A stretch of 64,000 bases of DNA. Source: an uncultured delta proteobacterium. GTDB lineage: Bacteria > Desulfobacterota > Binatia > Binatales > Binataceae. The translations under genes were made by a program, and so were the position numbers. Below, one piece after another: positions 2,799 to 18,132 of the stretch (position 1 is its first letter; every line of letters starts with the position of its first letter). Location of the stretch: contig CAWJET010000002.1 of assembly GCA_963842085.1 (NCBI GenBank), forward strand, positions 1,312,001 through 1,376,000, in the 5' to 3' direction. The notes under the pieces were generated by a model. It searched no databases. It saw only the letters and a program-made list of their open reading frames with translations, and was not told where the DNA came from.

Positions 2799-2921
2799 TT
2801 TAGGATGGATGGTGACAGTTCGAGGCGAGGTGGAAATCGCGTTGCTCCAGACAACAACAGCGGACTTCAAGGAAGAACGAATTACGTGAATCGAAATAGA
2901 CAATCACTGAGGTGGCAAACG

Positions 2922-4040
2922 ATGAAAGCAATTCTCGGATGCAGAGACGATTTTCTTTACGTCGTCGAAGAAGAAGACGTTGCGACCGGATCAGAGAAGA
3001 AGTGGCTTCGGGTCCGCATGGCGGACTGCGCCGAAGCCCAAACCCTCGAGGGCCGACCGGTCACGAGCGTGAATCAACAGGAGGGCATTTACGTGGACGA
3101 AGAAGGAAACGTGTATCAACTGGCAGACAAGGGCGAGACGAAGCCGATCGCAATCGAGCATCTCCCTGGAACGGAGAAAACCGAGCTCGAGGTACTACTG
3201 GAAGCTTCGCTGAAGGGAGGGAGGGCGAACGGAAAGAACGGCGGCGCCAAGCGCCTCTTGAAAAAGAATCGAAGCAGCGGTCGTGAGCAGCAAGAGTTGC
3301 AGATGGTAACCGCAAAGCCCGAGCCGCGCCCGGCCGAGGCACCTGCTGCGGTCGAGACCAGCGCCCCAACTTCCAATTTTGCGGCTACCGAAGCTCACGC
3401 CCAGTTGAATCTCCGACAGAAGCTCGCCGAAGTTCGCCGTCGCATCGGCTACATCCAGAAGCGCGGCCACAACGAGCGTCAGAACTACAGCTACGTCACC
3501 GCCGCCGATATCGCCGGCTCGGTCGGTGACATACTCGCCGAATTAGGGGTAGTCGTGATCCCCCGACTCGAAGACATCTCCTACGAATCGGCGGCGGGCC
3601 GTGGAGAAGCCACCCGGATGGCGCGAGTGGTAATGGCCTACACCTTCGCCGACGTCGACAGCGGCGAAGAGATCATCGCGAAGGTTGCGGGCCAGGGGCT
3701 CGATCCCGGCGACAAGGCGCCATACAAGGCGATGACCGGGGCATTGAAGTACGCGTTGCTGCAGTCCTTCCTGCTCGCCACTGGCGACGATCCCGAAGAT
3801 GAACGGGCTGACGGTCGTTACTCGGCAGGAAATCCAGAACGCCTGGTCAGCGCCGATCAAGTTCGCGAACTCCAGAAACTGATCGACGATACCGGAACCG
3901 AGCTCGAACGGGTGCTCACGTACTACAAGGTCGCGTCCCTCTCCGAATTGACCGAGACCGCCTACCGGCGCGCGCTCGAAGTGCTGAATCGCAAACTAGC
4001 CAGGCGCGGCAATCAGGAGACCGCCCATGCCCAGGATTGA
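2922..4040 (+). CDS. ERF-family single-strand annealing protein with a long N-terminal extension
   Basis: IQKRGHNERQNYSYVTAADI...GQGLDPGDKAPYKAMTGALKYALLQSFLLATGDDPE; RBS GAGGTGG before ATG 2922. Confidence 0.85.
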   Translation: MKAILGCRDDFLYVVEEEDVATGSEKKWLRVRMADCAEAQTLEGRPVTSVNQQEGIYVDEEGNVYQLADKGETKPIAIEHLPGTEKTELEVLLEASLKGGRANGKNGGAKRLLKKNRSSGREQQELQMVTAKPEPRPAEAPAAVETSAPTSNFAATEAHAQLNLRQKLAEVRRRIGYIQKRGHNERQNYSYVTAADIAGSVGDILAELGVVVIPRLEDISYESAAGRGEATRMARVVMAYTFADVDSGEEIIAKVAGQGLDPGDKAPYKAMTGALKYALLQSFLLATGDDPEDERADGRYSAGNPERLVSADQVRELQKLIDDTGTELERVLTYYKVASLSELTETAYRRALEVLNRKLARRGNQETAHAQD

Positions 4041-4905
4041 GCGGCTGCATCAGAACACTCCCGAATGGCACCGCTGGCGCAGGCAAGGGATCGGGGCCAG
4101 CGATGCTCCGGTGATCATGGGCGAGACCGCCTTCAAGAGCCCAAGAACGCTCTGGTCGATAAAAACCGGGCGTACGCAGGAAGCTGCGGCGGGTCCGGCA
4201 GCGCGACGCGGCCGCGAACTGGAGCTTTTCGCCCGTAGGGCGTACGAGCGCCAAACCGGAATCCAGGTGGAGCCACTGTGCCTGGTCCACCAGGAGTTCG
4301 AGTGGATGCGGGCGTCGTTGGACGGGCTTAGCTTCGACGGCTCCACGCTCGTGGAGATCAAATGCCCGCTCAGCCCGCGCGATCGCACAGCAGCAGAGCA
4401 AGGTCGCATCCCTTCCCAGTACCATGCGCAGCTGCAGCATCAACTGGAGGTCTCCGGTGCAGCGCAGGCGCACTACTGGTCTTTCCACGGGACCGACGGA
4501 GTCCTGGTCGAAATACGTCCCGACCGGGAATACGCCAAGCGGCTGGTAGAGGCAGAGGCCGCGTTCTGGCAGCTGGTGCAGGAAAACCGCTGGCCCGAAT
4601 CGGCCGACGAGGAACTGGACCTGAGCGCGGAGCCAAAATGGCGTCACGCCGCGCTCCGCTACCGTGAAGTCAGGCTCCAGCTGGAACACGCAGCGGCCGA
4701 AGAGCACAGGCTGCGCGCAACGCTTGCGTGTATGGCGACCGCGCGGCGGACCTACGGCTGTGGCGTCGAAGTATTGAAGAGCTCGCGCAAGGGCGCGGTC
4801 GATTACTCGGCGGTGCCGGAGCTCCGCGGGGTCAACCTCGAACCCTACCGTAAACCGCCGGTGGCGGTTGTGAAGATCAACTTCATCGAGCCCAACCGGC
4901 AATAG
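4027..4905 (+). CDS. YqaJ/lambda-exonuclease family recombinase-associated nuclease
   Basis: QNTPEWHRWRRQGIGASD, ASLDG, VEIKCP, QLQHQL motifs; overlaps the ERF gene. Confidence 0.9.
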   Translation: MPRIERLHQNTPEWHRWRRQGIGASDAPVIMGETAFKSPRTLWSIKTGRTQEAAAGPAARRGRELELFARRAYERQTGIQVEPLCLVHQEFEWMRASLDGLSFDGSTLVEIKCPLSPRDRTAAEQGRIPSQYHAQLQHQLEVSGAAQAHYWSFHGTDGVLVEIRPDREYAKRLVEAEAAFWQLVQENRWPESADEELDLSAEPKWRHAALRYREVRLQLEHAAAEEHRLRATLACMATARRTYGCGVEVLKSSRKGAVDYSAVPELRGVNLEPYRKPPVAVVKINFIEPNRQ

Positions 4906-4911
4906 ACCGTC

Positions 4912-5409
4912 ATGCAGGAATTTTTCGGCTTTCGCAATTTCCGTCAGTTCGAGCGCACCCGCCGAGAGCTCAAGCTGCCCTACGAGCTGCTGAACGACCT
5001 CCGGTTCCGTCAGCTGCCCGATGCCCGCAAGGCCCACCTGCTCTGCCTGCTGCTGCTCTCGGCGCGCATGAACAATCTGCTGCCCAACAGTCCGGTCAAG
5101 CTGGAGCGGCTGATCGGGGCGACCGAGCCCTTGGACTTAAGCGCCTTCGCCTACTTCGTCGACTTTGCCGTGGTGGAACAGCCGAGCTGGCAGGACCGCC
5201 TTGCCAACCGGCGGGTGCCCGATGGCATGCGGGCAGCGGTGCTGGTGCGCGACGGCGGACGCTGTCGAAGATGCCGTAGGGCGATCCAGCTGGAAATGGA
5301 TCACATCGTTCCGGTCAGCAAGGGCGGCAAGACCGAGGAAGCGAACCTTCAGACGCTCTGCCGGCGCTGCAACCGGGCCAAGTCCAAAAAGCTGGCTCCC
5401 AGGTTCTGA
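4912..5409 (+). CDS. HNH endonuclease with a phage replication-organiser-like N-terminal domain
   Basis: RDGGRCRRC...EMDHIVPVSKGG...NLQTLCRRCN. Confidence 0.85.
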   Translation: MQEFFGFRNFRQFERTRRELKLPYELLNDLRFRQLPDARKAHLLCLLLLSARMNNLLPNSPVKLERLIGATEPLDLSAFAYFVDFAVVEQPSWQDRLANRRVPDGMRAAVLVRDGGRCRRCRRAIQLEMDHIVPVSKGGKTEEANLQTLCRRCNRAKSKKLAPRF

Positions 5410-5412
5410 AAG

Positions 5413-7149
5413 ATGGGTGCGGCAGGCGAATCATCCCGCAGCGTCGCGGTCGAGTTGGCGCTGCTGTTCCTGCGCGAACTCGAGCCAACGGTCGCAGAAG
5501 ATCCGGAGCGGTTGGTCTCGACTGAGGCGGTGCTTTCCTTTGCCGCGGTCAGGCGAGGCGATCCGCTCACTTGGCAACACTGGCGCAGGATTCTCGAGAA
5601 GTACGAAAAGGCGGACTTGCTCGAGCACATGCTCGGCGGTCCAGTGCCCACGGAAACCGGCGACGGCAGCTCCGCCGCGGACAGATTGATCGGGATGGTG
5701 CTCGATTCTGGAATCGAGTTCTTTCACGATCCTGACCAGCACGGCTGGGCTTGCGTTCGGGTCGATGGGCACTTCGAGAATCATCCCGTCCGCTCCCGCC
5801 CGTTCCAGCTCTTCCTGCTGCGGACCTATTACCGGGAGACAGGCAACAGCCCGGGCGCCCAAGCCATCCGCGCCACGCTGGAGCTGTTCGAAGCCAAAGC
5901 CCTGTTCGACGGTGAGGAATCACCCATCAATCTTCGGGTCGCAAGTCACCGCGGCAAGCTTTATCTCGACCTATGCGACCGCGCCTGGCGGGCCGTTGAG
6001 ATCGATGCCGAAGGGTGGCAGATAGTAAATCGACCGCCGCCAAGATTTCATCGCACCCGCGGCTCCCGTCCGCTGCCCGCACCCGAGCGCGGCGGCGCTG
6101 TTGACGAACTGCGCCGCTTCCTGAACGTCGACCAACAGGGCTGGACGCTGATCAAGGCCTTCCTGGTCGCGGCGCTACGTCCCGGTGTGCCCTGTCCTAT
6201 CCTGATCGCCAAGGGTGAGCAGGGAGCGGGCAAGACCACTGCATGCAGAATCATCAGCGCGCTGATCGACCCGCGCACCGGGGCACTGCGGGGCGTCCCC
6301 CGTGAAGTTCGCGATCTGACGGCGGCGGCCAGAAACTCCTGGCTCGTATGCTTCGATAACCTGAGCCACCTGCCAGAGGAACTTGCCGATGCAGCCTGCC
6401 GACTAGCCACCGGCGGCGGCTTCGGTGGCCGGGAGCTCTATAGCGATCATGACGAAGCGATCTTCGACGCTATCCGGCCCATCGTGTTCAATGCGATTCC
6501 CGACCTAGGGGGCGCGCGGCCCGACTTTCTCGATCGCGCAGTGATTGTGGAGTTGCTTGACATGAAGCCCGAGCTGCGCCGCGACGAGACGCGGTTCTGG
6601 CACGAATTCGAAGAGGTACGACCGCGCATCCTCGGTGCGCTGCTCGATGCCGTTGTGACCGGACTCGGGAACCTGCCGGCTGTCACGCTCGAGCAACCGC
6701 CGCGGATGGCCGACTTCGCTATCTGGGTAAAGGCTTGCGAGGAAAGCCTCGGCATGAAACCAGGAGAGGCCCTGGCTACCTACCAGTCCAACCGCACCGA
6801 GACGCACAATCTGGCACTTGAGTCCTCGCCGCTGTACGAACCGGTTGCCCTACTGGCCCGCGAGGGCTTTACTGGGACGGTCGCAGAACTGCATTCACGG
6901 CTCAACTTCATGATGAGCGAAAGTATGCGCCGCTCGGTACGCTGGCCCAAGGCGCCCAATGCGCTGAGCAACGCGCTGCGCCGCATGGCCAGCAACCTCC
7001 GCGCTGTCGGAGTCGAGATCCAGTTCAGCCGCGCCGATATCCGCGGTAGGCGCCTGGTATCCCTGGTCTCTGTTTCCGAGCCTCGGAAAAGATCGTCAGT
7101 GATCGTCAGTGACCGTCAGTACGAGTGCCCGCTTCTCAGCCCGTTTTGA
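5413..7149 (+). CDS. Phage/plasmid-type P-loop ATPase (replicative helicase-like)
   Basis: Walker A GEQGAGKTT, Walker B-like VCFDN, RPDFLDR, PRMADF; last gene of a recombination/replication operon. ATG appears to be at 5413-5415. Confidence 0.75.
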   Translation: MGAAGESSRSVAVELALLFLRELEPTVAEDPERLVSTEAVLSFAAVRRGDPLTWQHWRRILEKYEKADLLEHMLGGPVPTETGDGSSAADRLIGMVLDSGIEFFHDPDQHGWACVRVDGHFENHPVRSRPFQLFLLRTYYRETGNSPGAQAIRATLELFEAKALFDGEESPINLRVASHRGKLYLDLCDRAWRAVEIDAEGWQIVNRPPPRFHRTRGSRPLPAPERGGAVDELRRFLNVDQQGWTLIKAFLVAALRPGVPCPILIAKGEQGAGKTTACRIISALIDPRTGALRGVPREVRDLTAAARNSWLVCFDNLSHLPEELADAACRLATGGGFGGRELYSDHDEAIFDAIRPIVFNAIPDLGGARPDFLDRAVIVELLDMKPELRRDETRFWHEFEEVRPRILGALLDAVVTGLGNLPAVTLEQPPRMADFAIWVKACEESLGMKPGEALATYQSNRTETHNLALESSPLYEPVALLAREGFTGTVAELHSRLNFMMSESMRRSVRWPKAPNALSNALRRMASNLRAVGVEIQFSRADIRGRRLVSLVSVSEPRKRSSVIVSDRQYECPLLSPF

Positions 7150-7244
7150 CCGGGATTTCATCGGAAAATATTGGAAACACGCAGCGATTAGGCGATGGTC
7201 GTTCGTGACTATTACCCACTGACGATCACTGACGATCTTTTCCG
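7084..7244. repeat. Perfect 28-bp inverted repeat built from 10-bp iterons; candidate replication origin
   Basis: CGGAAAAGATCGTCAGTGATCGTCAGTG at 7084-7111 and its exact reverse complement at 7217-7244; a third iteron GACCGTCAGT at 7111-7120. Confidence 0.8.
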
Positions 7245-7614: not shown

Positions 7615-9405
7615 TCACGCGGCTAGTTCTTGAGCCTCGCGCATCGCGCGGAACCGACCTGTTGGCCGCGCAGACAGCGCGTCCCAGTCGCCGGATTCGA
7701 CGACCCTGCCGTCTTCAATCACGTAGATTAGATCCGCCCACCTAACGGTTGCGATGCGATGAGCGATGAGGATGGTGGTGGTTCCTGCGCCTAGCTTTTC
7801 AAGCGCACTGAGAACGCGAGCCTCGCTCGCGGAATCGAGGTTGTTGGTTGCCTCGTCGAGTACCAAAAGCCGCGGACGCCTCAGTATCGCACGGGCAAGC
7901 GCTATCCTTTGCCGTTCGCCCTGCGATAATGCCACGCCCCTATCGCCGATGACCGTATCGAGCCCCATTGGGAGCGCCGCCAAGAAGTCGTCAGCCGCCG
8001 CGATCGAAAGTGCTTCTCGAATGTCCGTTTCACTCGCACCCGCTCGCGCCCATTCAACGTTGGCGCGAAGCGTGTCGTGGAAGAGAAACGTATCCGGCGC
8101 AACGTAGCCCACACACTCGCGCCATCGGCGCGCCTCCACGGGTGTCAACTCAGCTCCGTCGATCCTGATGAAACCCTCGTCGGGCGCGATCAACCCCATA
8201 GCTAGATCCGCCAACGTGCTCTTTCCGGCTCCCGATGGACCGACCAGCGCGACGACGGTACCGGCGGGAATGACCAGCTCGGCGCGATATACGGCTGGCG
8301 CCCGGTCGCGGCTGTACGAGAACGAGACGCGATCGAAGCGGATCTCGCGGCGCAGATCCGGCGCCGGCGCGTTCGGTATCCCCGGTTCGGCCGCCGCGGC
8401 GCATCGCTGCTCCAAGGCGATCAAGTTTCCAAAAGAAGGTAGGAGACCAGCGGCCGATCGCAATTGCTGATGACCAGACATCAACCGCGGCATGACGCGC
8501 GCGAACAGCACTAGCAGGATCAGAATTGCGGCGGGCGGAACCGAGAGCACCCGGATCGCCGCGTAGAGCACCGCGCCCATGATCGCGGCCGAGCCTAGCT
8601 CGAACCACGCCGTAGCCGCGGCCTGCGCACCGATCGCCGCAAGGTCGGCAGCCATGAGTGCGCGGCTTGAGCGGGCGAAGATCGAGAAGTTGCGCTCTTC
8701 AGCTCCGCAAGCTTTTGCTGTCTTCAGGCTGTGTAGATGTTCGATCGTCACTGCATATAGCGAGCCCCTGAAATCGGACTGTCTCTGGCCCGCTTGTTCA
8801 ATCGCGCGAGTGCGCCCGCGGAGCGCGATTGCGAGCACCGCAGCGCAGCTCAACACCAGCAGCGTCATCGCAGCCGAGAGCCGAAGCGCGAGCGCGCAAT
8901 ACACAGCGGTCAACACGATATTTGCCGCAACAAGCATGATGTCGTAGGCTGCCTCTCTTACGCGATCGAGTTCGCCGGTCAGCGCATGGGTGAAATCCGA
9001 TGCTCGGCTGCGGCAGATGAACAGCCAGTTAGCGTTCGTGATCGCGCGGTAGAGCCGCAGCCGCATCTCGAGCACGAACTGTTGCTGGACCGCGTACATA
9101 GCCAAGCTCTGCAGCCGACCGACGATCGTTCGCAGCGCAATCAACACGACCAACATGGCGAGCAGAATCTCAAGTGACGGTGTGATCCCCACAGCAGAAA
9201 ATGCGCGTTCGATCGTGCGCGCGTAGCGGCCCGCTGAACCCTGCCCTGCAAGATCGAGCCCCGCGGCTTGCAGGGTTGGCAGCAGGAGCAGGATGCCAAG
9301 GCCTTCGGTCATCGAGAACGCGACCATAAGCGCCACGGCCGCGGTAAGGCGCCACCCGGCGGACCTGGCGAGCTCGCGCACAAACCTGAGCGCCGCGCGG
9401 TTCAT
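7615..9405 (-). CDS. ABC exporter, fused TMD-NBD (lasso peptide D-type)
   Basis: TM helices, GPSGAGKST, LSQGERQR, LLVLDEAT; ATGA overlap with the upstream nucleotidyltransferase gene. Confidence 0.9.
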   Translation of the reverse strand: MNRAALRFVRELARSAGWRLTAAVALMVAFSMTEGLGILLLLPTLQAAGLDLAGQGSAGRYARTIERAFSAVGITPSLEILLAMLVVLIALRTIVGRLQSLAMYAVQQQFVLEMRLRLYRAITNANWLFICRSRASDFTHALTGELDRVREAAYDIMLVAANIVLTAVYCALALRLSAAMTLLVLSCAAVLAIALRGRTRAIEQAGQRQSDFRGSLYAVTIEHLHSLKTAKACGAEERNFSIFARSSRALMAADLAAIGAQAAATAWFELGSAAIMGAVLYAAIRVLSVPPAAILILLVLFARVMPRLMSGHQQLRSAAGLLPSFGNLIALEQRCAAAAEPGIPNAPAPDLRREIRFDRVSFSYSRDRAPAVYRAELVIPAGTVVALVGPSGAGKSTLADLAMGLIAPDEGFIRIDGAELTPVEARRWRECVGYVAPDTFLFHDTLRANVEWARAGASETDIREALSIAAADDFLAALPMGLDTVIGDRGVALSQGERQRIALARAILRRPRLLVLDEATNNLDSASEARVLSALEKLGAGTTTILIAHRIATVRWADLIYVIEDGRVVESGDWDALSARPTGRFRAMREAQELAA

Positions 9406-10613
9406 TGACGTGCGATCTGCGCAGTACGCGGCAAGATACGCGGTCCATGCTGAAGCAGGAGCCGCACTGGGCGCGTCAAGTAATAGGCCCAATAGAACGC
9501 TTTGGGCAGCGGCAGTGCTTCCCAGTCTTCGATCGTCGGGCGCAGGCCTCTGGTCAGCAAATACTGAAGGCGTAGTCCCAATCCTTCGATAGCGCTCAAT
9601 GGCACTACCCAGTCGCAGTATATCGATGGCAAAAGACCGGGCGCCGGAAAAAGCCGGCGGGCAATTCCGACGGCAAGCCGCATCACCCGGCCGTCGGAAG
9701 TAGATCGGCCTAGCACACCTTCAGGGACATGCCCACCTGCGAACGCTTGCGCAAGCACCGCACCAAGACGGAACATTCGCGTACATCCTAATCGCGCCAT
9801 CTCGTCTTCAGTTTGCTCCCAATCCGCCAAGCCTGTTGCGGTCAGCGCGGCGATGTCGCACATCGAGCGCAGCGACGCCCATCCCCATCCGTGCTTGGTC
9901 GCGTGCGCGATGCTGAAGATCAGGTGGTTGTCCGGGGCCAGCGTTTGCATCCACCGCCCATCGATCTCGACCACAACGCCGTTGCGCCAGACCGCTTCGT
10001 GGTTCGGACGATAGGGAAAATAGCTTGGCACCAGCGCTAGGTGCAGGTCGATCAGCAGACCGCCTTGCTTCTCGAACTGATCCTCGAAGGATCGGAAGAA
10101 ACCAAAATACGGAGCGCCGGATTGGTATCGCCGGGGGCGATAGCCCCGATCCGTAAGGATTCTGCCAACCTGCGGCAAGTCGCCTTGCCGGACGAGGATG
10201 TCCAGGTCGCCTGACTGACGGGCCGCGAGATCTCCATAGGCCTGAACTGCGAGCGCCGGTCCCTTGAGCGCGAGCATACCAAGCCCGGCTGCCGCGAACG
10301 CTTCATGAACCTCGACGAGCTCATGCGCCAGCCGGAGATGCGTGAGTGCGTTCGCCGCGTACCAGGCGTGAAGACGCGCGGCTATATCGGCTGGAACGCG
10401 GTCCGCGCAATGCGCGGCTAGGAAGCGATGCACGGGAGGTATGACGAAATGCCCCGCGGCCTCGGACGCAACTCGGTCCCAGTCGAGATCGCGGGCGGCA
10501 AGCGCAGTCGCGCGGGAACGCGACTCAGAGGTCGCAGGTGTCGAAATGCACGCAGCGATCAGCTGCCCCTCGAGCGGCAGCTCAGCACGCAGCGATTGGG
10601 CTATGTCATCCAT
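9402..10613 (-). CDS. Nucleotidyltransferase family protein (lasso-cluster associated, NTP_transf_5-like)
   Basis: LKGPALAVQAYGDLAARQSGDLDILV, IDLH, HATKHGW motifs. Confidence 0.85.
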   Translation of the reverse strand: MDDIAQSLRAELPLEGQLIAACISTPATSESRSRATALAARDLDWDRVASEAAGHFVIPPVHRFLAAHCADRVPADIAARLHAWYAANALTHLRLAHELVEVHEAFAAAGLGMLALKGPALAVQAYGDLAARQSGDLDILVRQGDLPQVGRILTDRGYRPRRYQSGAPYFGFFRSFEDQFEKQGGLLIDLHLALVPSYFPYRPNHEAVWRNGVVVEIDGRWMQTLAPDNHLIFSIAHATKHGWGWASLRSMCDIAALTATGLADWEQTEDEMARLGCTRMFRLGAVLAQAFAGGHVPEGVLGRSTSDGRVMRLAVGIARRLFPAPGLLPSIYCDWVVPLSAIEGLGLRLQYLLTRGLRPTIEDWEALPLPKAFYWAYYLTRPVRLLLQHGPRILPRTAQIARQ

Positions 10614-10659
10614 AAGAGGCAGGCGGTATGCCGATACGGCCGCCAGGTTACCGACCGGT

Positions 10660-11121
10660 TCAGTGGCGGGCGTCGTACTCCGTACTACGAAAGAGCGCAG
10701 CATAGCGGCCCGATTCGAACGCGCCGCCGATCACGATTCCCCCTTTGTACTCGACCCACGCGTGGGCAGCGAGTTGGCCCGTCGGACTCTTTGACGCGCC
10801 TATCCGCAACTCGCTGGTCAAACCGAGCCGGCTCAGCATACGCTGTACCGCTATCGCACGCACCAGACAGTTGCGCCCGCCCGGAACGCACGCGCTTGCG
10901 GCCGCCACGGCCCGTGCAACACGAGCCACAAGCAGCGCTGGATCGTGGTTGTACGTGCTGTTTCGAGCGGGTGCGCCAGCCCAATCGCGCACCCGAGCGA
11001 ACGGCAGCAGAAGCAGCCTTGCTCGTGCTGCAAGCACGGCGAGGAACGCTCTGGGTAGTATTATCCACTCCGCTACGGATAATGTGCGAATCCTTCGAAT
11101 GCGGGCAAGCACGGGGCTCAT
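10660..11121 (-). CDS. Lasso peptide leader peptidase B2 (transglutaminase-like)
   Basis: NCLVRA (catalytic Cys), LRIG, AHAWVE (catalytic His). Confidence 0.9.
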   Translation of the reverse strand: MSPVLARIRRIRTLSVAEWIILPRAFLAVLAARARLLLLPFARVRDWAGAPARNSTYNHDPALLVARVARAVAAASACVPGGRNCLVRAIAVQRMLSRLGLTSELRIGASKSPTGQLAAHAWVEYKGGIVIGGAFESGRYAALFRSTEYDARH

Positions 11122-11155
11122 GCGGGTGTTCATTGCGCCACGCGCAGGTCGAGCT

Positions 11156-12187
11156 TCAGCGCCCTGCTGAGAGCTTGGCACTCTCACGATTGCCGCCGCT
11201 CATATCCGCGAGCACCATCTCGCGTACCGCGGCTAACGCGGTGAAGTCGTTCGGAACTACGAGCTTCTTTACCGGCACTTTCGCGACGACCTGCTTGAGA
11301 AATCGAAGTTTGTGGAGATTGGCGGCGCGATCAGTTGATTCGAATAACCACGACGCTGACGCCAGTTCGACCAAGGATTCGGCCCAAGACATGTGCTCGA
11401 CCTTTGGCGCATGGGTCTGGTCCGCATCGTTGTCCAGCCGGTTCAATCGGTATATCCACTTGAGCGGCACCGATTTGGCCGCCAAACTGGCCCTGGGGTC
11501 GGCGGCGTCGTGCCGGCTCAAGCGAATAATCCGCCCGAGCGGCTGCGGTTGGGCGTTTGAATGGAGATCAGGCGCGCATCGCTCGGAGTTGTAGCCTGCG
11601 ACGGCGTCCGACCGAGCCGAGTCGATTCTCAGCGCTTCGACGCTTTCATTCGACAGCCACGCGCCTGGATAGCCGGGCGTGAGAACGATCTGGCCGCTGC
11701 CACTCAGACTCAGCACGACCCAGTCGTCGCCGAGCAGCGGGAAGCCCGCAAGTGCAAAGCTTGCCGCGAGCGTCGATTTTCCGGTACCTCCCGGGCCGAT
11801 GAATGCGCACGCTCCATAGTCGGTCAAAAAGGCGGTCGCGTGGATCGACTTGATTCCGATCAGATCGAGAACACCCGGGATGACGCCATTGAGAAGCCGA
11901 TGTCGCAGTACCTTGGGAAAAATTTCAGAGTGTACTCTGCAATACTCTATCGCGCGCACCAGACAATTGCGCCAACCGGGAACGCGCGCGCTTGCGGCTG
12001 CCACGGCCCGTCCAACACGCGCCGCAAGCAGCGCAGGTGCAGCAGCCCAATCGCGCACGCGCGCAAATGCCAGCCACAGCAGCCTCGCTCGCACGGCAAG
12101 CACGGCGAGCAGGGCCCCGGGCACCGGCTTGCGGTCAGCTTCGGATAATGCGCGGACCTTTCGGATCCGGGCGAAGGCGGTTCTCAT
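11156..12187 (-). CDS. Chimeric protein: B2 N-terminal half fused to an HPr-kinase-like domain
   Basis: N-terminus MRTAFARIRKVRALS...FARVRDW...NCLVRAI matches B2; C-terminal part has IHATA, GPGGTGKST, LLGDD. Confidence 0.75.
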   Translation of the reverse strand: MRTAFARIRKVRALSEADRKPVPGALLAVLAVRARLLWLAFARVRDWAAAPALLAARVGRAVAAASARVPGWRNCLVRAIEYCRVHSEIFPKVLRHRLLNGVIPGVLDLIGIKSIHATAFLTDYGACAFIGPGGTGKSTLAASFALAGFPLLGDDWVVLSLSGSGQIVLTPGYPGAWLSNESVEALRIDSARSDAVAGYNSERCAPDLHSNAQPQPLGRIIRLSRHDAADPRASLAAKSVPLKWIYRLNRLDNDADQTHAPKVEHMSWAESLVELASASWLFESTDRAANLHKLRFLKQVVAKVPVKKLVVPNDFTALAAVREMVLADMSGGNRESAKLSAGR

Positions 12188-12224
12188 TCCAACGACCAGT
12201 GTGTCGGCACCTGTAGTCTGAGCG

Positions 12225-13223
12225 TCAGCACACTTCGAGGAATCCCACGCTATCACGCTCGTGACCGCTCATATCCGCGAGCACCATCTCACGTGCCGCG
12301 GGTAACGCGGCGAAGTCGTTCGGAACTACGAGCTTCTTTATTGGCACTTTCGCGACGACCTGCTCGAGGAATCGGAATTGGCGGAGATTGGCAAAGCGAT
12401 CAGTTGGATTGAATCGATACGACGCTGACGCCAGCTCGATCAACGATTCGGCTCGAGACATGCGCTCGATCCTTGGCGCATAGGTCTGGTCCGCGACGTT
12501 GTCCGTCAGCCGGTTCAATCGGTATATTTGTTTGAGCGGCAGCGATTCGGTCGCGAAATTTCGCCTCAGGTCCGGAACCCGACGTTTCCAATCGTCGTCG
12601 CCGATAGTTTCCGATCGGGCCGGATAGATGCCGAGTGCGTCAAGGCTGTCACCCCACAGACGCGTGCCCGCGTAGCCAGGCGTCAGGACAATCTCTAGGG
12701 CGCTGCAAAGGACGACGCAATCGTCGCCGAGAAGGAGCGCTCCGCTGCGCACAAGACTTGTGGCCAAGGTGGACTTGCCGGCGCCGGTCGGACCGAGGAA
12801 CGCGCATGCGCCGCCATCGATTGCAACCGCCGTCGCATGAATCGCCTCGAAGCCACGGAGATCGAGCACGCGGGGAATTACGGCGTCCAATAAGAGATGC
12901 CGCAGCATATCGCGCGAAGTCGCATCGCAAAGCCCGCAGCACTCAATTTCATCACCGCCTTCGCTGACGAAGAAATCCGCCAGTCCGGGAAACCGCAACA
13001 GGTAGCCACCGGGGGTAGTCGCACAGATTAGCCACTCCTGCCCGTCGATATTGTCGTGACGTAAAAAGACCGCATCGGGATCGAATTCGATCAGTCTTGC
13101 AATCTGGAGGCGTACGCGCATCACAGCTTGCGGCTCATGCTCGCTGCCCGAGTACGGCGTTAGTTCCGGAAGAAGCACGTCGGAGTCGAGGCGGATTCCG
13201 TACACTGAATACGACGGCATCAT
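12225..13223 (-). CDS. HPr-kinase-like lasso peptide kinase (PadeK/ThcoK-like)
   Basis: IHATAV, Walker A GPTGAGKST, LLGDD; located in the lasso cluster. Confidence 0.85.
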   Translation of the reverse strand: MMPSYSVYGIRLDSDVLLPELTPYSGSEHEPQAVMRVRLQIARLIEFDPDAVFLRHDNIDGQEWLICATTPGGYLLRFPGLADFFVSEGGDEIECCGLCDATSRDMLRHLLLDAVIPRVLDLRGFEAIHATAVAIDGGACAFLGPTGAGKSTLATSLVRSGALLLGDDCVVLCSALEIVLTPGYAGTRLWGDSLDALGIYPARSETIGDDDWKRRVPDLRRNFATESLPLKQIYRLNRLTDNVADQTYAPRIERMSRAESLIELASASYRFNPTDRFANLRQFRFLEQVVAKVPIKKLVVPNDFAALPAAREMVLADMSGHERDSVGFLEVC

Positions 13224-13471
13224 TGAAGATCGATCTGGTCGAGAGACGCCCGCAGGCGCTGCTGGAACCTCCAGCGCAGATTTCGTTCAACCGGAAGAAT
13301 CACGCGCGTTCCCGTCGGCTCGGCCTCGTGAGAATTCTCGAGAGACCCGGAAAAAGTGCGGCTGTAGTCATGTCTCCTAGGTATCTTGAGCGCGGAATCC
13401 CGCGAGTCGGGACCCTTGTGGGGGTTAAGGCGCTTTGCGGCATACCCCCGTGCGTTGCGCCCAAGGTACGT

Positions 13472-13660
13472 TTACGGAAAGCCCGGAAACTGAAAGCCCT
13501 GCTTTTTGGTCATCCTGTCTGATCTTCTACCCGCACTGCCAGCGGTGAGCTTCGCAACGTCACCGTACCTCACCAAAGCGGGCTTTACATACAGCGGGCG
13601 AGGACTGGCGCAGTATTTCCCGATCGCAGGCGACGAACTGCTGTTGCTTTCGGGCTTCAT
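13472..13660 (-). CDS. Lasso peptide precursor; predicted core GSAGRRSDRMTKKQGFQFPGFP (Gly1-Asp8 ring)
   Basis: Leader motif YVKPALVRYGDVAKLT (YxxPxL...G...T at -2), Gly1 and Asp8; RBS AGGAGA 8 nt upstream. Confidence 0.9.
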   Translation of the reverse strand: MKPESNSSSSPAIGKYCASPRPLYVKPALVRYGDVAKLTAGSAGRRSDRMTKKQGFQFPGFP

Positions 13661-13940
13661 CCAAAATTCTCCTGCACCCGGTCAAATATAGTCAACTGAG
13701 TTAGCGAATTCCAGTCAGGGAAATCAATCAAATCGTCCGCTTCATGCCGCTAGTCATTGCCAAAGCTCCGTCGGCTAGCCCACTCCATAGTTCGAAATGA
13801 CGTGTGCCACGAATGGCTGCGCCTCGCGGGCATGTGAAACAGATCGGAATGCAATTCGTAAACCCGGCGCTCGATCTCCGCTCGTTCGCCGCGTCGGGTC
13901 GCACAGGTCAACGACCCAGCGCGCGCGGGCCACCACGGAG

Positions 13941-15932
13941 TCAGCACAAAGTAGGGGGCCTGTCTGGCGAGACTAGAGACATGCTCGAATCGCGATTTGT
14001 TTCGGTCGTTGCAATGCGGGCGAAGCCGCCCGAGAAGTGTCGAATCAGCATCTCAACTCCAAACAAGGCAAATCCGGTCCACATGTAATCGGTGCATCGA
14101 CAGTCGTGCGACTGATAGAATCGCCAGGCGGCTTCGTGCGCCTGCTTCAGCCGAGCCTGACTCACCCAGCCCATCTCCGCAATCTCCAGGCGATCGATCA
14201 GTGAATCACCAGTTTGCTTGACCGCTCTCATCATCAGGTCGCTGAAGTCACCCTTCGTGGTTCGCTTTCTGATCCGCTCGGGCAAGAGTTCCTTCATCGC
14301 ATGGCGCATGAGGAGCTTCGAAACTCCCTGGTTCCAGCGGTGCTCTTCAGCGAGCCCAGAGACAAATTCGATCACGCGGCGATCGCAAAATGGATGACGG
14401 TAATCAATACCGAGCCGCCCGGCGTCCCGCTCGCCTCCTTCAACCGCGTAGGTCAGCCATCCGTCGCGCATCAGGTACCACATCGCCCAGACCGCTTGTG
14501 GCTTTTCGTCCCACTCTCCAAGCGCCCGGCGCGCACGGTCCTCCAGATCAAAGCGCCTGGCAAAGGCCGGCTCGAGCCATGAGAGCCACGCAAATGAGGG
14601 GCTTTCGCCGCGGTTGAGCATTCGCCTGACGCGTTCTCGCGCGAACGCCGGCACGAACGGCCATACCGCCGAGCGAAAGACGACATCGATGAACCCGCGC
14701 TGGACCTCGCCTGACCCTATATTCTTTCTCAGCGATCGCAGGGCGTGGGCGAACCTCACCGGATGAACCCCGCGGACCAAAGCAGCGAGATCGCCGGTCC
14801 CTCCATCCATCGTGTGATCCCCGCCGTGACCGCTCAGCGCAACGCGCAGTCCCCGCGCAGCGACGTTCTGCATGAGGGTTTGCCCCATTGCGTAATTGGG
14901 ATACGGCGGCAATTCGAGGTGGCGATGCACGTAATCAGCGAACCAGGCGGCGTCCGGCTCGAATGCGTGGCATTCGTGGGTCGAGAAGTCGCACGCGCGC
15001 TCGACTTCGGCAATATATTCGCGCTCGTCCGCGTCAGGATCGGTATAATTCAGCGAGAATGGCTCGGCGCGATTGCTGACAATACCCCGGCGCATCAGAT
15101 CGTGTCCGATGCATACGATTGACGAGGAATCGAGGCCGCCGCTCAGATCGGCCGCAACATCACCCGGAGAGCGCATCCGGCATCGGACCGCCTCGACCAG
15201 GGTCTCGCGGAGGGCCGAAGCGGTATCGTCGTAAGTGGCAAAGCGAAGCGCCTTCGCTGCAGCCGGATCGTAGTACTCGCGATGCCTCATTCCCGAGCTG
15301 TCTACCGTGAGGCATGCCCCGCCTTCGAGTCTGAATATGTTGCGTATTACAGTCTCTCGACGCGTGAATGGACCGCCAGCTAGGCACTCTGCAAGAAACG
15401 CCTCGTTGAGCTTGCGGCCGATCGCATGGTCCTGAAGAATCTGGATCAGATCGGATGCGCACAGGAATCTTCTGCCGTCGAAGAAGTAGTGCAGCGGCTT
15501 GAAACCGAGCGGATCGCGCGCGCACAGCATCCTGCGTCTGCGGCCGTCCCATACCACGATCGCAAAATCGCCGAGCAAGCGGTTCCAGGCTCCTTCGTCC
15601 CAGAGCTCGAAGCATCGTCCGACGAGCTCTACATCGGTCGGTTCATCCAAGCTCGCGCCCGAAGATTCCAGTTCACGCAAGAGTTCCCTTCGGTTGTCGA
15701 TGCGCCCGTCGAAGATAACTCGGATGGTCGCGTCCGCGTTGACCCAGGGCTGGTCCTCGCGCACCGCCTCGGGTGTAGTGGCAAACTTCCGAAACGCCAT
15801 GCCCGCCGCCCCTTCGGTCCAGAACGCTGCACCGTCGGGACCGCGATCGCACACGGAGTCCACCATCGCGCGTAGCATAGCCCGGTCGGCCGGCCGCTCG
15901 TCGACGTTGAATATACCTGCGATCGCACTCAT
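13941..15932 (-). CDS. Lasso peptide cyclase (asparagine synthetase-like C protein)
   Basis: MSAIAG start (no glutaminase Cys), DGRIDN, ARDPLG, DLSGGLDSSSI, SGHGGD, RHPFCDRR. Confidence 0.9.
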   Translation of the reverse strand: MSAIAGIFNVDERPADRAMLRAMVDSVCDRGPDGAAFWTEGAAGMAFRKFATTPEAVREDQPWVNADATIRVIFDGRIDNRRELLRELESSGASLDEPTDVELVGRCFELWDEGAWNRLLGDFAIVVWDGRRRRMLCARDPLGFKPLHYFFDGRRFLCASDLIQILQDHAIGRKLNEAFLAECLAGGPFTRRETVIRNIFRLEGGACLTVDSSGMRHREYYDPAAAKALRFATYDDTASALRETLVEAVRCRMRSPGDVAADLSGGLDSSSIVCIGHDLMRRGIVSNRAEPFSLNYTDPDADEREYIAEVERACDFSTHECHAFEPDAAWFADYVHRHLELPPYPNYAMGQTLMQNVAARGLRVALSGHGGDHTMDGGTGDLAALVRGVHPVRFAHALRSLRKNIGSGEVQRGFIDVVFRSAVWPFVPAFARERVRRMLNRGESPSFAWLSWLEPAFARRFDLEDRARRALGEWDEKPQAVWAMWYLMRDGWLTYAVEGGERDAGRLGIDYRHPFCDRRVIEFVSGLAEEHRWNQGVSKLLMRHAMKELLPERIRKRTTKGDFSDLMMRAVKQTGDSLIDRLEIAEMGWVSQARLKQAHEAAWRFYQSHDCRCTDYMWTGFALFGVEMLIRHFSGGFARIATTETNRDSSMSLVSPDRPPTLC

Positions 15933-15956: not shown

Positions 15957-16226
15957 TTAAGCTGCAGTCTTGATCAGACCTTCGTTCGAGAGATCACTTA
16001 TGAGTTCGTCGAAATCGCGCTCAATCTGGTCGCGGGAAACGTTGTACTGGGTGGCTAGGGATTGCAAAATCTCTTCGCGTCTTCGGCCTGCCGCGATCAA
16101 GGTCCAGATACGCGCGCCGACCTGATTGAGACCGAAATAGATGCCAGTATCCAACTTTAGGATCACCACCTCATCATCGAGGTCGGTCCAGACCACGTCG
16201 TCGACAACTCGAAGGACATTCGTCAT
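15957..16226 (-). CDS. RiPP recognition element (PqqD-like B1/E protein)
   Basis: DDEVVILKLDTGIYFGLNQVGARIWTLI...LSNEGLI, 89 aa. Confidence 0.9.
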   Translation of the reverse strand: MTNVLRVVDDVVWTDLDDEVVILKLDTGIYFGLNQVGARIWTLIAAGRRREEILQSLATQYNVSRDQIERDFDELISDLSNEGLIKTAA

Positions 16227-16278: not shown

Positions 16279-18132
16279 TCAGATCGGACGGGCCGTTCCG
16301 ATCGGCAAGGCACCGGGCGCTGCGCCCCCGCCGGAAGGTTCACGTGGCACGACCTCCTGCGTCTCGTTCAGTTGCATCGAGAATCTCCGCACAGGTATTC
16401 CGTGCGTCCGCCCAAAGCGGTGAAGTCTTTCCATCTGCCCGGGAGCGAGCTCTTCGTCCGCAACGATGATCTCGGTGAACGGCACCCGCGCGTGGATGGA
16501 CTCGATGTCCTCAGGTGTGCCCAGCACTTCCTCTCCGTGCAAGAGTTTGCCGTGCTTGAATGCATCCTCATCGACGAATCCAACAATCCGGGCCGAGCGT
16601 GTGCGCGCCTTCAACACGAATTCTGCGGCCACGGTTCCGATTTCTCCAGCTCCTACCACTAGTACCCTGTCAGTGACGGTCGCGAGGCGGCTGATCAGCC
16701 TGCGCAACACCTGGAACGACATCCGCGTCGCGACCAAAAGGTTGACGAGCAGCAGCGCGAACAGCACCGCGATTGATCCGGAATGCCTGATGGGCAGGAA
16801 ATTGGATCCGATTGCCACGAGGCTTGCAGCGAGCATCGCGCCGCCGGCGAACCGGAAGCTGTCCGTGAGACCCGCGTGGCGCCAGATTCCGCGATAAACG
16901 CCCGCGAGCAGAAATGCCGGGTACGTCAGCACGATCACCCACGGCAGCCCGCGCATCATCGATGCGAGCACCTCGGGAGTGAGGTTGAAATCGAGCCGCA
17001 ACGCGCACGCACCGAAATAAGCAGCGCTGATTAGCGCGATGTCCATCGTCGCATCAGCAATTCGTCGTTTGTAGCCGAGGGAAAGAATGTACCGTGCGAC
17101 CCCCTGAAGATAGCCGTATGCGACGCCCGGGGGATTCGCGTCGAAGATCAAATCGATCATGAAGAGCGCGATCACCGCCGCAGCGAGTGCGATAAACGGC
17201 AGCGCTGCGACAACGTCAGGGTGCGGCAACAGGTTAGCCGCAACCGCGCATACCGCAGTGACCGTCGCCACCGCCCAGATCGACGCGACAGTCCTCCGCT
17301 CCGAAAGTCCGAGCGAGAGCAGGCGATCGTGTACGTGCTCCAACCCATGCCGCGAAATCGCTTTCCCCGTCGCCAGTCGGGATGCCGTCACGATTCCCGT
17401 GTCGAGCAGTGGCACCAGCATCACCAGCACTGGGAAAACCCAAAGAGTGAGTCGCGTGTTCGTCGCGAGCGCTCCTCCTTGAAGCGCCAGTACTCCGAGC
17501 ATGTACCCGAGCGGGAGAGCGCCCGCGTCGCCCATAAAGATCGACGCGGGATAGATATTGAAGATCAGAAATCCCCCCAACGCTCCGGCGACGGCGAGGC
17601 TCGGCGCGGTTACCGCGGGCACTCCTCGCACGGTGCCGATCACCGCAATCGCAGCGGCGACCGTAAGTCCGATGCCCGCCGCCAGACCGTCAAGTCCGTC
17701 GACGAGGTTGAACGCGTTAGTCGCGGCGACCAGCCAGAAGATGCTGATCCCTACACCCAGAAATTGCCAAGGAGCGAACGCGTAACGGGGCAACGCGAAC
17801 ATAGCCGCCCACGTAACTATCGCGAGCTGGCATAACAATTTCTGCCGCGGGCTCAGCACCAGCGCATCGTCTACCAGACCGACTGCCAGCATCGCGCCGG
17901 CGCCTATCGCCACCCACGAGACCAGGTGGCTGGTCACCGCGAGGGCGACGACGATCGAGACAATAATCGAAATGCCACCCGTAGCAGGAACTCGTGCTTC
18001 GCTGAGCGGTGAAGCTACTTTCGCCGTGATGCCAATCCACCGCCCAAAGCGCATCGCAGCGGGCATCGTAACAATCGCCGCTAAGAACGCGATTGCTCCC
18101 GTCGTCCACGGATTTGTCAGTAGGGCGAGCAT
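16279..18132 (-). CDS. WecA/MraY-like polyprenyl-phosphate sugar-phosphotransferase fused to a CapD-type TM/Rossmann region
   Basis: GLVDD, NAFNLVDGLDGLA, IFMGDAG; C-terminal YRGIWR and VLVVGAGEIG. Confidence 0.85.
   Translation of the reverse strand: MLALLTNPWTTGAIAFLAAIVTMPAAMRFGRWIGITAKVASPLSEARVPATGGISIIVSIVVALAVTSHLVSWVAIGAGAMLAVGLVDDALVLSPRQKLLCQLAIVTWAAMFALPRYAFAPWQFLGVGISIFWLVAATNAFNLVDGLDGLAAGIGLTVAAAIAVIGTVRGVPAVTAPSLAVAGALGGFLIFNIYPASIFMGDAGALPLGYMLGVLALQGGALATNTRLTLWVFPVLVMLVPLLDTGIVTASRLATGKAISRHGLEHVHDRLLSLGLSERRTVASIWAVATVTAVCAVAANLLPHPDVVAALPFIALAAAVIALFMIDLIFDANPPGVAYGYLQGVARYILSLGYKRRIADATMDIALISAAYFGACALRLDFNLTPEVLASMMRGLPWVIVLTYPAFLLAGVYRGIWRHAGLTDSFRFAGGAMLAASLVAIGSNFLPIRHSGSIAVLFALLLVNLLVATRMSFQVLRRLISRLATVTDRVLVVGAGEIGTVAAEFVLKARTRSARIVGFVDEDAFKHGKLLHGEEVLGTPEDIESIHARVPFTEIIVADEELAPGQMERLHRFGRTHGIPVRRFSMQLNETQEVVPREPSGGGAAPGALPIGTARPI

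Follow-up and report, generated by a model that had tools for sequence, protein, structure and literature searches.

What becomes of a gene assembled from parts of two neighbors, and can it supply a ribosomally synthesized and posttranslationally modified peptide (RiPP) pathway with a new enzyme? The question is raised by a lasso-peptide cluster in a 64,000-nucleotide (nt) stretch of DNA from an uncultured member of the Binataceae (GenBank assembly GCA_963842085.1, contig CAWJET010000002.1, positions 1,312,001 to 1,376,000; here referred to as the window). The cluster lies on the minus strand in the gene order B1, C, A, K1, CH, B2, nucleotidyltransferase, ABC exporter. Between the HprK/PEPCK-like kinase K1 and the leader peptidase B2 lies CH, here called the hybrid, in which the start of a B2 protein is joined to the catalytic part of such a kinase. 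An initial annotation of the window proposed that the B2 piece docks the hybrid onto the complex of leader peptide and RiPP recognition element (RRE, encoded by B1), creating a leader-dependent second kinase caught as it arose. We find that the hybrid is real, old, and limited to one narrow clade, and we tentatively read the copy in this lineage as a nucleotide-binding, kinase-impaired partner of the RRE-precursor complex and not as a new kinase.

Origin and age of the hybrid gene

The tandem duplication and the open B2/kinase frame that had been proposed are both found. The hybrid runs for 343 codons without a stop (12187 to 11156, minus strand), and repeats pair 11181 to 11435 with 12250 to 12504 (85% identity, spacing 1069) and 10851 to 10941 with 11947 to 12037 (88% identity, spacing 1096), with further repeats (D3 to D5). 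In gapped blastn, the kinase 3′ part, spacer, and B2 5′ part match from copy to copy at 480/644 nt (75%, E = 1e-124), and the kinase catalytic part at only 181/278 nt (65%). A unit is duplicated as described, although its copies measure 1000 and 1099 nt instead of ∼1.05 kb. The fusion is in frame, but the junction, previously put at ∼11900 to 11947 and joined to the kinase at LRHRLLNGVIP, falls exactly at the Ile codon 11950 to 11948 (RAI/EYC, compared with RAI/AVQ in B2 and IECC in the kinase), with no linker before LRHRLL. The annotation also missed an extra 25-residue stretch that repeats one beta-strand motif.

Relatives that carry a plain kinase-B2 pair without the hybrid (loci L040, L041/L042, and L035) indicate how the fusion may have formed; L041 and L042 look identical and were counted once, and L043, with no match to cluster genes, was dropped. 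Across relatives, the unit of kinase 3′ part, spacer, and B2 5′ part appears in one copy (plain kinase-B2) or two (kinase-hybrid-B2), and slippage or unequal crossing-over between an ATAG in B2 and an ATAG in the kinase would have produced the tandem copy. Because both ATAG motifs are read in the same frame in the unduplicated relatives, one slip would suffice for an in-frame fusion, and the product would have been open from birth, taking over the start signal of B2. The spacer between K1 and the hybrid also precedes the intact B2 of unduplicated relatives, so the hybrid probably inherits the translation start of B2. The proposed tandem duplication, whose breakpoints fall within two adjacent genes, is supported as the origin of the hybrid.

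A recent duplication in this genome, or an assembly artifact, could be suspected given that portions of the two copies are 85 to 88% identical and that the DNA may stem from sequencing runs X1 and X2. We regard this explanation as already refuted and hardly credible. The initial annotation had worried that reads might not support the junction; a 4504-nt contig from run X8 (study P3), which is not marked as a possible source, covers 10500 to 13386 with 90 differing letters and gaps listed only near 10629 to 10637, none of them in the hybrid, and contigs of X4, X5, and X6 (study P2) and of X7 bridge the junction. The hybrid is therefore not an assembly error. The junction is furthermore common to several lineages in independent assemblies, and the catalytic parts of the hybrid and K1 are too different (see below) for a recent copy. 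The runs that hold DNA of this locus are mostly soil metagenomes, with no RNA run among 10 runs.

The search for B2-kinase fusions in other genomes that the annotation had called for recovered the same hybrid in related lineages. Four of 38 homologues span at least 92% of the hybrid (P0001 from this lineage, P0002, P0003, and P0004); genome G144 has kinase, hybrid, and B2 in the same order as the window; and P0127 is a further fragment of 115 amino acids (aa), either cut or broken. All eight hybrid sequences examined, from five diverged lineages, have the same junction codon and a 10- to 11-residue deletion, and all seven full-length ones have a 2-residue insertion, which P0007 has too. A single origin is most likely, since junction codon and deletion are common to all eight, and from these sequences the hybrid likely arose once, long ago; in the tree, the hybrid kinase parts fall on one side of a branch with support of 69/80, which neither establishes nor contradicts their monophyly. 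The kinase part in the window is 63 to 79% identical to those of other lineages, and synonymous divergence (dS) between the window and G144 is 0.44 for the hybrid, 0.36 for B2, and 0.52 for the nucleotidyltransferase. With the same hybrid in five lineages at this divergence, it is not the snapshot of a newly arising enzyme that the annotation saw in it.

The distribution is narrow and the copy number varies. Of 47 genomes examined in the genus, 2 were found to carry the hybrid, and in a survey of 151 family genomes these two alone showed another kinase match next to the first that begins at residue 93. Close relatives have no hybrid (L040, L041/L042, and L035) or one (window, L039, and G144). 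For P0042, P0002, and the B2 protein P0058 alike, the source is an NCBI contig 5753 nt long, which suggests that two hybrids lie in tandem on one relative's contig; in short contigs from X4 to X6, a kinase end is followed by the start of a second hybrid that is 86% identical. No independent fusion was found among 3894 candidates of 172 to 548 aa chosen by word index (four hybrids and one B2; longer or shorter fusions fall outside this search), among the best 150 of 13503 representatives (three have matches that begin no later than profile position 20), or in the species genomes (1 of 56 pattern matches).

Some relatives have gone further. P0004 (484 aa) holds a B2 N-terminal half, a kinase, and a complete B2 in one in-frame chain, and P0126 (685 aa) has two family kinases in tandem, which is another path to two kinase domains. 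In G144 (L044), K1 and the hybrid are set apart by ∼200 additional nt (7746 to 8000), the last of which are left over from the stop region of an older kinase, and the ABC exporter is frameshifted and shortened (10704 to 11508).

The cluster in the window is a mosaic. C and K1 (12500 to 15932 in the window) differ from G144 with dS of 1.5 to 1.7, compared with 0.36 to 0.52 for downstream genes. The catalytic part of K1 groups with G023 and P0010 (support 100/99); a grouping with the hybrid is rejected (approximately unbiased [AU] test, P = 2e-5), and K1 and hybrid are 51% identical over hybrid residues 80 to 230. From the dS contrast and the K1 grouping, this lineage appears to have taken in a foreign C-A-K1 module that replaced the upstream genes, and the hybrid would have kept the older kinase type, so that its catalytic part is best read as descending from a kinase no longer intact in this genome. 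K1-type sequence was pasted into the 3′ half of the hybrid, 25 codons out of register (dS to K1 only 0.21), probably after the module arrived; the 3′ parts consequently resemble a young duplication.

Kinase domain of the hybrid and selection

Hybrid residues 1 to 80 correspond to B2 (a blastp segment with 59/99 identities and a 10-residue deletion) and residues 80 to 336 to K1 residues 93 to 325 (141/258, 55%). Residues 1 to 80 derive from the helical half of B2 (the TfuB2/FusB and PsmB2 kind of leader peptidase), with its catalytic Cys. This piece keeps Cys75 and has no His, no Asp/Glu, and no beta-sheet; His120 of B2 lies 30 residues beyond the breakpoint, the Cys-His-Asp/Glu triad is incomplete, and even the Cys is missing in three of eight hybrids (P0002, P0004, and P0127). 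The hybrid has no match to NF033537 or PF13471 at E ≤ 0.01, both of which match intact B2. The annotation was right that the B2 piece is protease dead, with the Cys present and the His of the AHAW motif absent. We considered a membrane anchor and rejected it, as the hydrophobicity and amphipathicity of the piece do not exceed those of its counterpart in intact B2. No solved structure of a B2 relative was found by sequence.

The AlphaFold model of the hybrid has low-confidence helices over residues 1 to 80 and a confident kinase part (predicted local distance difference test [pLDDT] mostly 80 to 97, about 90 in the catalytic domain), for which Foldseek gives HprK/P (E = 1e-5) and PEPCK as best matches; identity to these folds is 10 to 16% and no HprK cut-off is reached. 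The K1 model (pLDDT 90) has a beta domain (1 to 97) and a catalytic P-loop domain (98 to 320), and its residues 1 to 328 superpose on Escherichia coli PEPCK residues 119 to 474 (VIA Z 16.7, 278 aligned, root mean square deviation 4.7). In the hybrid, K1 residues 1 to 92, a portion of the beta domain, are replaced by B2 helices. With the breakpoint at the start of the last beta-domain strand, the hybrid has the whole catalytic domain and lacks one wall of the cleft; it is predicted to fold a complete HprK-like catalytic domain with loosely packed B2 helices in place of the N-terminal beta domain. The isolated catalytic domain of HprK is active.

The kinase motif that the annotation had noted is indeed retained: His116, the Walker A sequence GPGGTGKST, and the Asp pair are present, and the His-Lys-Asp-Asp set with its P-loop (H116, K137, D154, and D155) is kept in all seven full hybrids. 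Lost in this lineage (window, L039, and P0042) are R188, K213, and R215, three basic residues in K1 numbering, together with D113, which Asn100 replaces. We define the near-invariance of the three from our own set of 185 full-length family homologues, in which R or K stands at 188 in 185, K213 in 183, and R215 in 171; 169 lack none of the three, 16 lack one, and none lacks two or three. The hybrids of G144, P0002, P0003, and P0004 keep all three, and in K1 and the G144 and P0002 hybrids all 27 columns conserved in at least 90% of the family are intact. Changed conserved columns of the hybrid fall less often within the P-loop core (2/23) than outside it (16/43; P = 0.011, with the core boundary picked after inspection of the data). 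W190 is changed in all seven full hybrids, and the 25-residue patch, found only in this lineage, is predicted to loop out.

Selection was assessed against L039, a strain ∼97% identical to the window; both are post-fusion. Purifying selection acts on the kinase part, in which 13 changes fall in 198 synonymous sites and 10 in 594 nonsynonymous sites (ratio of nonsynonymous to synonymous rates [omega] 0.25, P = 0.001), so the ratio that the annotation would have taken as evidence against a functional product, one near 1, is not what is seen. Residues 80 to 230, not overwritten by K1 given their 51% identity to it, have 10 synonymous and 4 nonsynonymous changes (omega 0.13). For the same strains, omega is 0.23 for C, 0.23 for K1, 0.15 for the exporter, and 0.67 for B2; the value for the nucleotidyltransferase, read out of frame, was excluded. 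Compared with G144, the B2 part of the hybrid has omega 0.49 (P = 0.011) and the real B2 0.39. Branch rates calculated from pairwise distances instead of a codon model put omega at 0.57 for the branch leading to this lineage (dS at or below the nonsynonymous rate in 8% of bootstraps), at 0.23 for the one leading to the copy in G144, and at 0.03 and 0.17 for the tips, which suggests a loose phase on the way to this lineage and then renewed constraint. We rejected the open frame as proof of selection: it is too weak alone, because 0.9 to 16% of neutral simulations at a divergence of 0.44 also end without a stop. Between the same two strains, B2 is changing fast (10.5 synonymous and 19.5 nonsynonymous changes, 10660 to 11121) and the precursor tail differs by an indel (13472 to 13500).

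Docking and possible roles

Docking through the B2 piece in the manner of B2, as the annotation had it, is contradicted. TfuB2 has a helical part (residues 17 to 96, with Cys 79) and a beta-sheet (97 to 138); V101, V103, F109, L134, and I135 face the RRE-leader sheet in a predicted complex, changes to them abolish activity, and this RRE-binding patch in the C-terminal beta-sheet lies at least 22 residues past the catalytic Cys (bioRxiv 10.1101/2022.04.06.487251). The B1-B2 contact is described as a beta sandwich in the available part of a further report (PMC13381572). The B2 piece of the hybrid stops at Cys+5, without the beta-sheet and its hydrophobic patch, and the hybrid therefore cannot dock as B2 does. 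The annotation also suggested a complex prediction of hybrid, RRE, and leader. With RRE and precursor residues 18 to 62, the hybrid scores 0.50, compared with 0.00 for the best of three controls; 36% or more of the contacts recur between runs, and the partner pLDDT is no lower than 58. This lends weak support to RRE binding by the whole hybrid and says nothing for docking by B2, as the prediction comes without interface detail and cannot separate the B2 helices from the kinase domain. BsfK, as described in the excerpted account, is RRE stimulated without any B2 piece (PMC10368454). The hybrid, if it works at all, probably works like the lasso kinases and not like B2.

A leader-dependent second kinase, as originally claimed, is plausible for the relatives and doubtful for this copy, in which the three near-invariant basic residues are lost; the hybrids of G144, P0002, P0003, and P0004 may be still active second kinases. 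In this lineage, we would picture the ATP/Mg core as kept, the basic residues for phosphate or substrate as lost, and purifying selection as resumed afterward. The product may sit on the RRE-loaded precursor, either holding it or damping its phosphorylation by K1 before B2 cuts. A fuller version, in which a RiPP pseudokinase formed from two neighboring genes is a second kinase elsewhere and here a selected, noncatalytic regulator of lasso phosphorylation, seems to us improbable as a whole.

Several points weigh against a kinase-impaired partner. The published His-Lys-Asp-Asp motif is fully intact, Arg203, which adjoins the lost pair Glu202/Cys204, is still present, and four changes are not unique: 17 of 185 family members differ at four or more of the 27 best-conserved columns. 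A role of R188, K213, and R215 in holding phosphate or substrate is suggested by conservation and charge only; to our knowledge, nobody has mutated them. An hhalign alignment to PEPCK (probability 94, 197 columns) places R188 three positions past an invariant Lys, and K213 and R215 miss the invariant Arg. The low omega comes from a single strain pair and 14 changes; in that pair the 3′ kinase part (3 synonymous, 6 nonsynonymous, omega 0.62) says little, and no selection is visible in the B2 part (2 synonymous, 4 nonsynonymous, omega 0.85). The complex score of 0.50 is in a range more often wrong than right (of 157 solved pairs, 116 pass the mark, as do 2 of 215 mismatched ones; 18 of the 157 and both mismatches pass it at 0.60 or below), and it may reflect B2-RRE or kinase-RRE resemblance. 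Finally, the hybrid is dispensable within the clade, as close relatives lack it.

The hybrid could be a translated passenger without a task: the array would re-form by recombination, an open and foldable frame would protect translation of the downstream genes B2, N (nucleotidyltransferase), and D (exporter), and selection would only purge frameshifts and misfolding changes. The copy number among close relatives (0, 1, and probably 2), the lost basic residues and out-of-register patch, which look like decay, the W190 change in every full hybrid, the 115-aa length of P0127, and the slight weight of an open frame fit this account. One crossover between the repeats would be enough to delete a passenger cleanly, yet the hybrid has lasted for dS of about 0.4 to 0.6 in several lineages, has kept every residue of the catalytic motif in 7/7, and has an omega over residues 80 to 230 as low as those of cyclase and exporter. 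We consider a passenger unlikely, though a serious contender. An active second kinase of altered specificity, with or without docking by the B2 piece, would have had its substrate face remodeled, after the foreign cyclase, precursor, and K1 arrived, for another core Ser/Thr or another acceptor. The intact motif and P-loop with changes clustered outside the nucleotide core, purifying selection at the tips, the confident catalytic domain with HprK/P as best match, the fully conserved columns of the G144 and P0002 hybrids, and the RRE score above controls all accord with it, as does BsfK, which in the excerpted description shows that this kind of kinase can be RRE dependent and act inside the ring (PMC10368454). 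It is opposed by the family set, in which every member has R/K188 and at most one of the three basic residues is missing from any of them, by the nature of two of the changes (to Trp and Glu), by the missing beta domain, which forms one wall of the PEPCK-like cleft, by the RRE patch outside the retained piece and the Cys lost in three hybrids, and by the single precursor found in the genome; we judge it rather unlikely for this copy.

Whichever role applies, the locus and its relatives provide natural stages in the birth of a RiPP-pathway gene from a fusion, with unduplicated parents, a mapped 4-nt breakpoint, diverged descendants, one lineage in which conserved residues are gone, and a hybrid that reads on into B2. 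These stages bear on whether the N-terminal beta domain is the RRE-precursor contact and on what R188, K213, and R215 do in lasso kinases. If the pseudokinase reading is true, active, disabled, doubled, and B2-fused states coexist and could be compared at the bench. Its reach is limited by the one narrow clade in which the hybrid is found, and by the chance that the hybrid is a passenger.

The lasso cluster and its surroundings

Table 1. Genes, repeat copies, and hybrid features of the lasso cluster (window coordinates)
Feature	Position	Strand	Basis
B1/RRE, PqqD-family leader-binding protein	15957..16223	-	PF05402 (E = 7e-18); NF033536; alignment A5
C, lasso cyclase, asparagine-synthetase-like	13941..15932	-	PF00733; NF033535 (E = 2.5e-117, below model cut-off)
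A, precursor, 62 aa	13472..13660	-	NF033521 above cut-off; YxxPxL leader motif; Thr at -2
K1, full-length HprK/PEPCK-like kinase, 332 aa	12225..13223	-	Structure model, family columns
Hybrid gene CH, 343 aa	11156..12187	-	Open frame; copies P0039-P0044 in public collections, exact or near-exact
B2, intact leader peptidase, Cys85 + His120	10660..11121	-	NF033537 above cut-off; PF13471
PsmN-like nucleotidyltransferase	9402..10703	-	PF14907 (E = 9e-55)
ABC exporter	7615..9492	-	PF00005, PF00664
Repeat copy 1: kinase from codon 93 on, spacer, first 80 B2-like codons	11948..12947	-	1000 nt
Repeat copy 2: kinase part of hybrid, spacer, B2 codons 1-90	10852..11950	-	1099 nt
K1-to-hybrid spacer	12188..12224	-	Compared with spacer and start of L040, L041
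Junction, 4-nt microhomology ATAG	11947..11950	-	B2 and kinase of unduplicated relatives read ATAG in one frame
B2-derived part, residues 1-80	11948..12187	-	Predicted helices only; pLDDT 41-61 over 1-70
His116, Walker A 131-139 (GPGGTGKST), Asp154-Asp155, intact	11723..11842	-	Alignment
Lost family residues Trp177 (R188), Glu202 (K213), Cys204 (R215)	11576..11659	-	Family alignment
Extra stretch, 25 residues, out-of-register K1-type patch	11417..11491	-	pLDDT 51-61

The open reading frame of B1 opens at a GTG at 16343, and its likely start is the ATG at 16223. By the Thr-2 rule, the precursor core probably starts GSAGRRSD with a Gly1-Asp8 ring, which puts Ala at position 3 and Ser at 2 and 7; the precursor ends in Pro. 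On this putative core boundary, the acceptor sites of known lasso kinases (a C-terminal Ser, or Ser/Thr3) are missing. A leader model and a motif scan of the genome each gave one match, both to the known A gene, and found no second lasso precursor.

The cluster is of the Bsf/Psm kind, as far as the excerpted reports describe it (PMC10368454, PMC6993621, PMC9266682, PMC10885120). The bsf cluster of Bradymonas sediminis shares the gene set A, B1, B2, C, D, kinase, and nucleotidyltransferase, and BsfK is similar by description, with an HprK-like H...GxxGxGKS...DD motif, in a comparison without aligned sequences; in the same partial account, bsf differs in having one kinase and no hybrid, and BsfK modifies Ser3 where the putative core here has Ala (PMC10368454). 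Because the precursor lacks a C-terminal Ser, an internal phosphorylation site is likely, as in bsf. PadeK, ThcoK, SyanK, and PsmK, in the text available, share the His-Lys-Asp-Asp motif, which is the lasso-kinase catalytic motif (PMC9266682, PMC10368454), and the split B1/B2 cluster; they phosphorylate a C-terminal Ser, whereas the precursor here ends otherwise, and no peptidase-derived N-terminus is described for them there (PMC9266682, PMC6993621). The psm cluster likewise has, in its excerpted description, a nucleotidyltransferase between B2 and D (PMC6993621). LPP clusters, which carry LppK and lie in capsular polysaccharide loci, share the RRE, HprK-like kinase, nucleoside triphosphate transferase, and exporter; they differ, in the part of the report available, by a SipW-like peptidase and by an additional RRE and precursor (PMC13381572), neither of which was found in the cluster here. 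The lasso-cluster setting expected of an HprK-like lasso kinase (A, B1, B2, and C) is present around the hybrid, and no B2-kinase hybrid was found in the titles or abstract openings of the literature searched.

The cluster closes a co-directional Wzx/Wzy polysaccharide locus (16279 to 42501) that holds glycosyltransferases, a flippase, two Wzy_C proteins, and chain-length and export proteins, a setting that matches reports for LPP and paeninodin-like clusters. A phage-like module (ERF, YqaJ, HNH, and a 578-aa P-loop protein; 2805 to 7244) faces the cluster end, with a perfect 28-nt inverted repeat (7084 to 7111 and 7217 to 7244) that has an internal 10-nt tandem and overlaps the end of the last gene. 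An orphan 3′ piece of a related kinase adjoins a second nucleotidyltransferase (L004, 1507 to 3301; G000:C2:935557-937462), and a second RRE-like gene lies at G000:C2:1226982.

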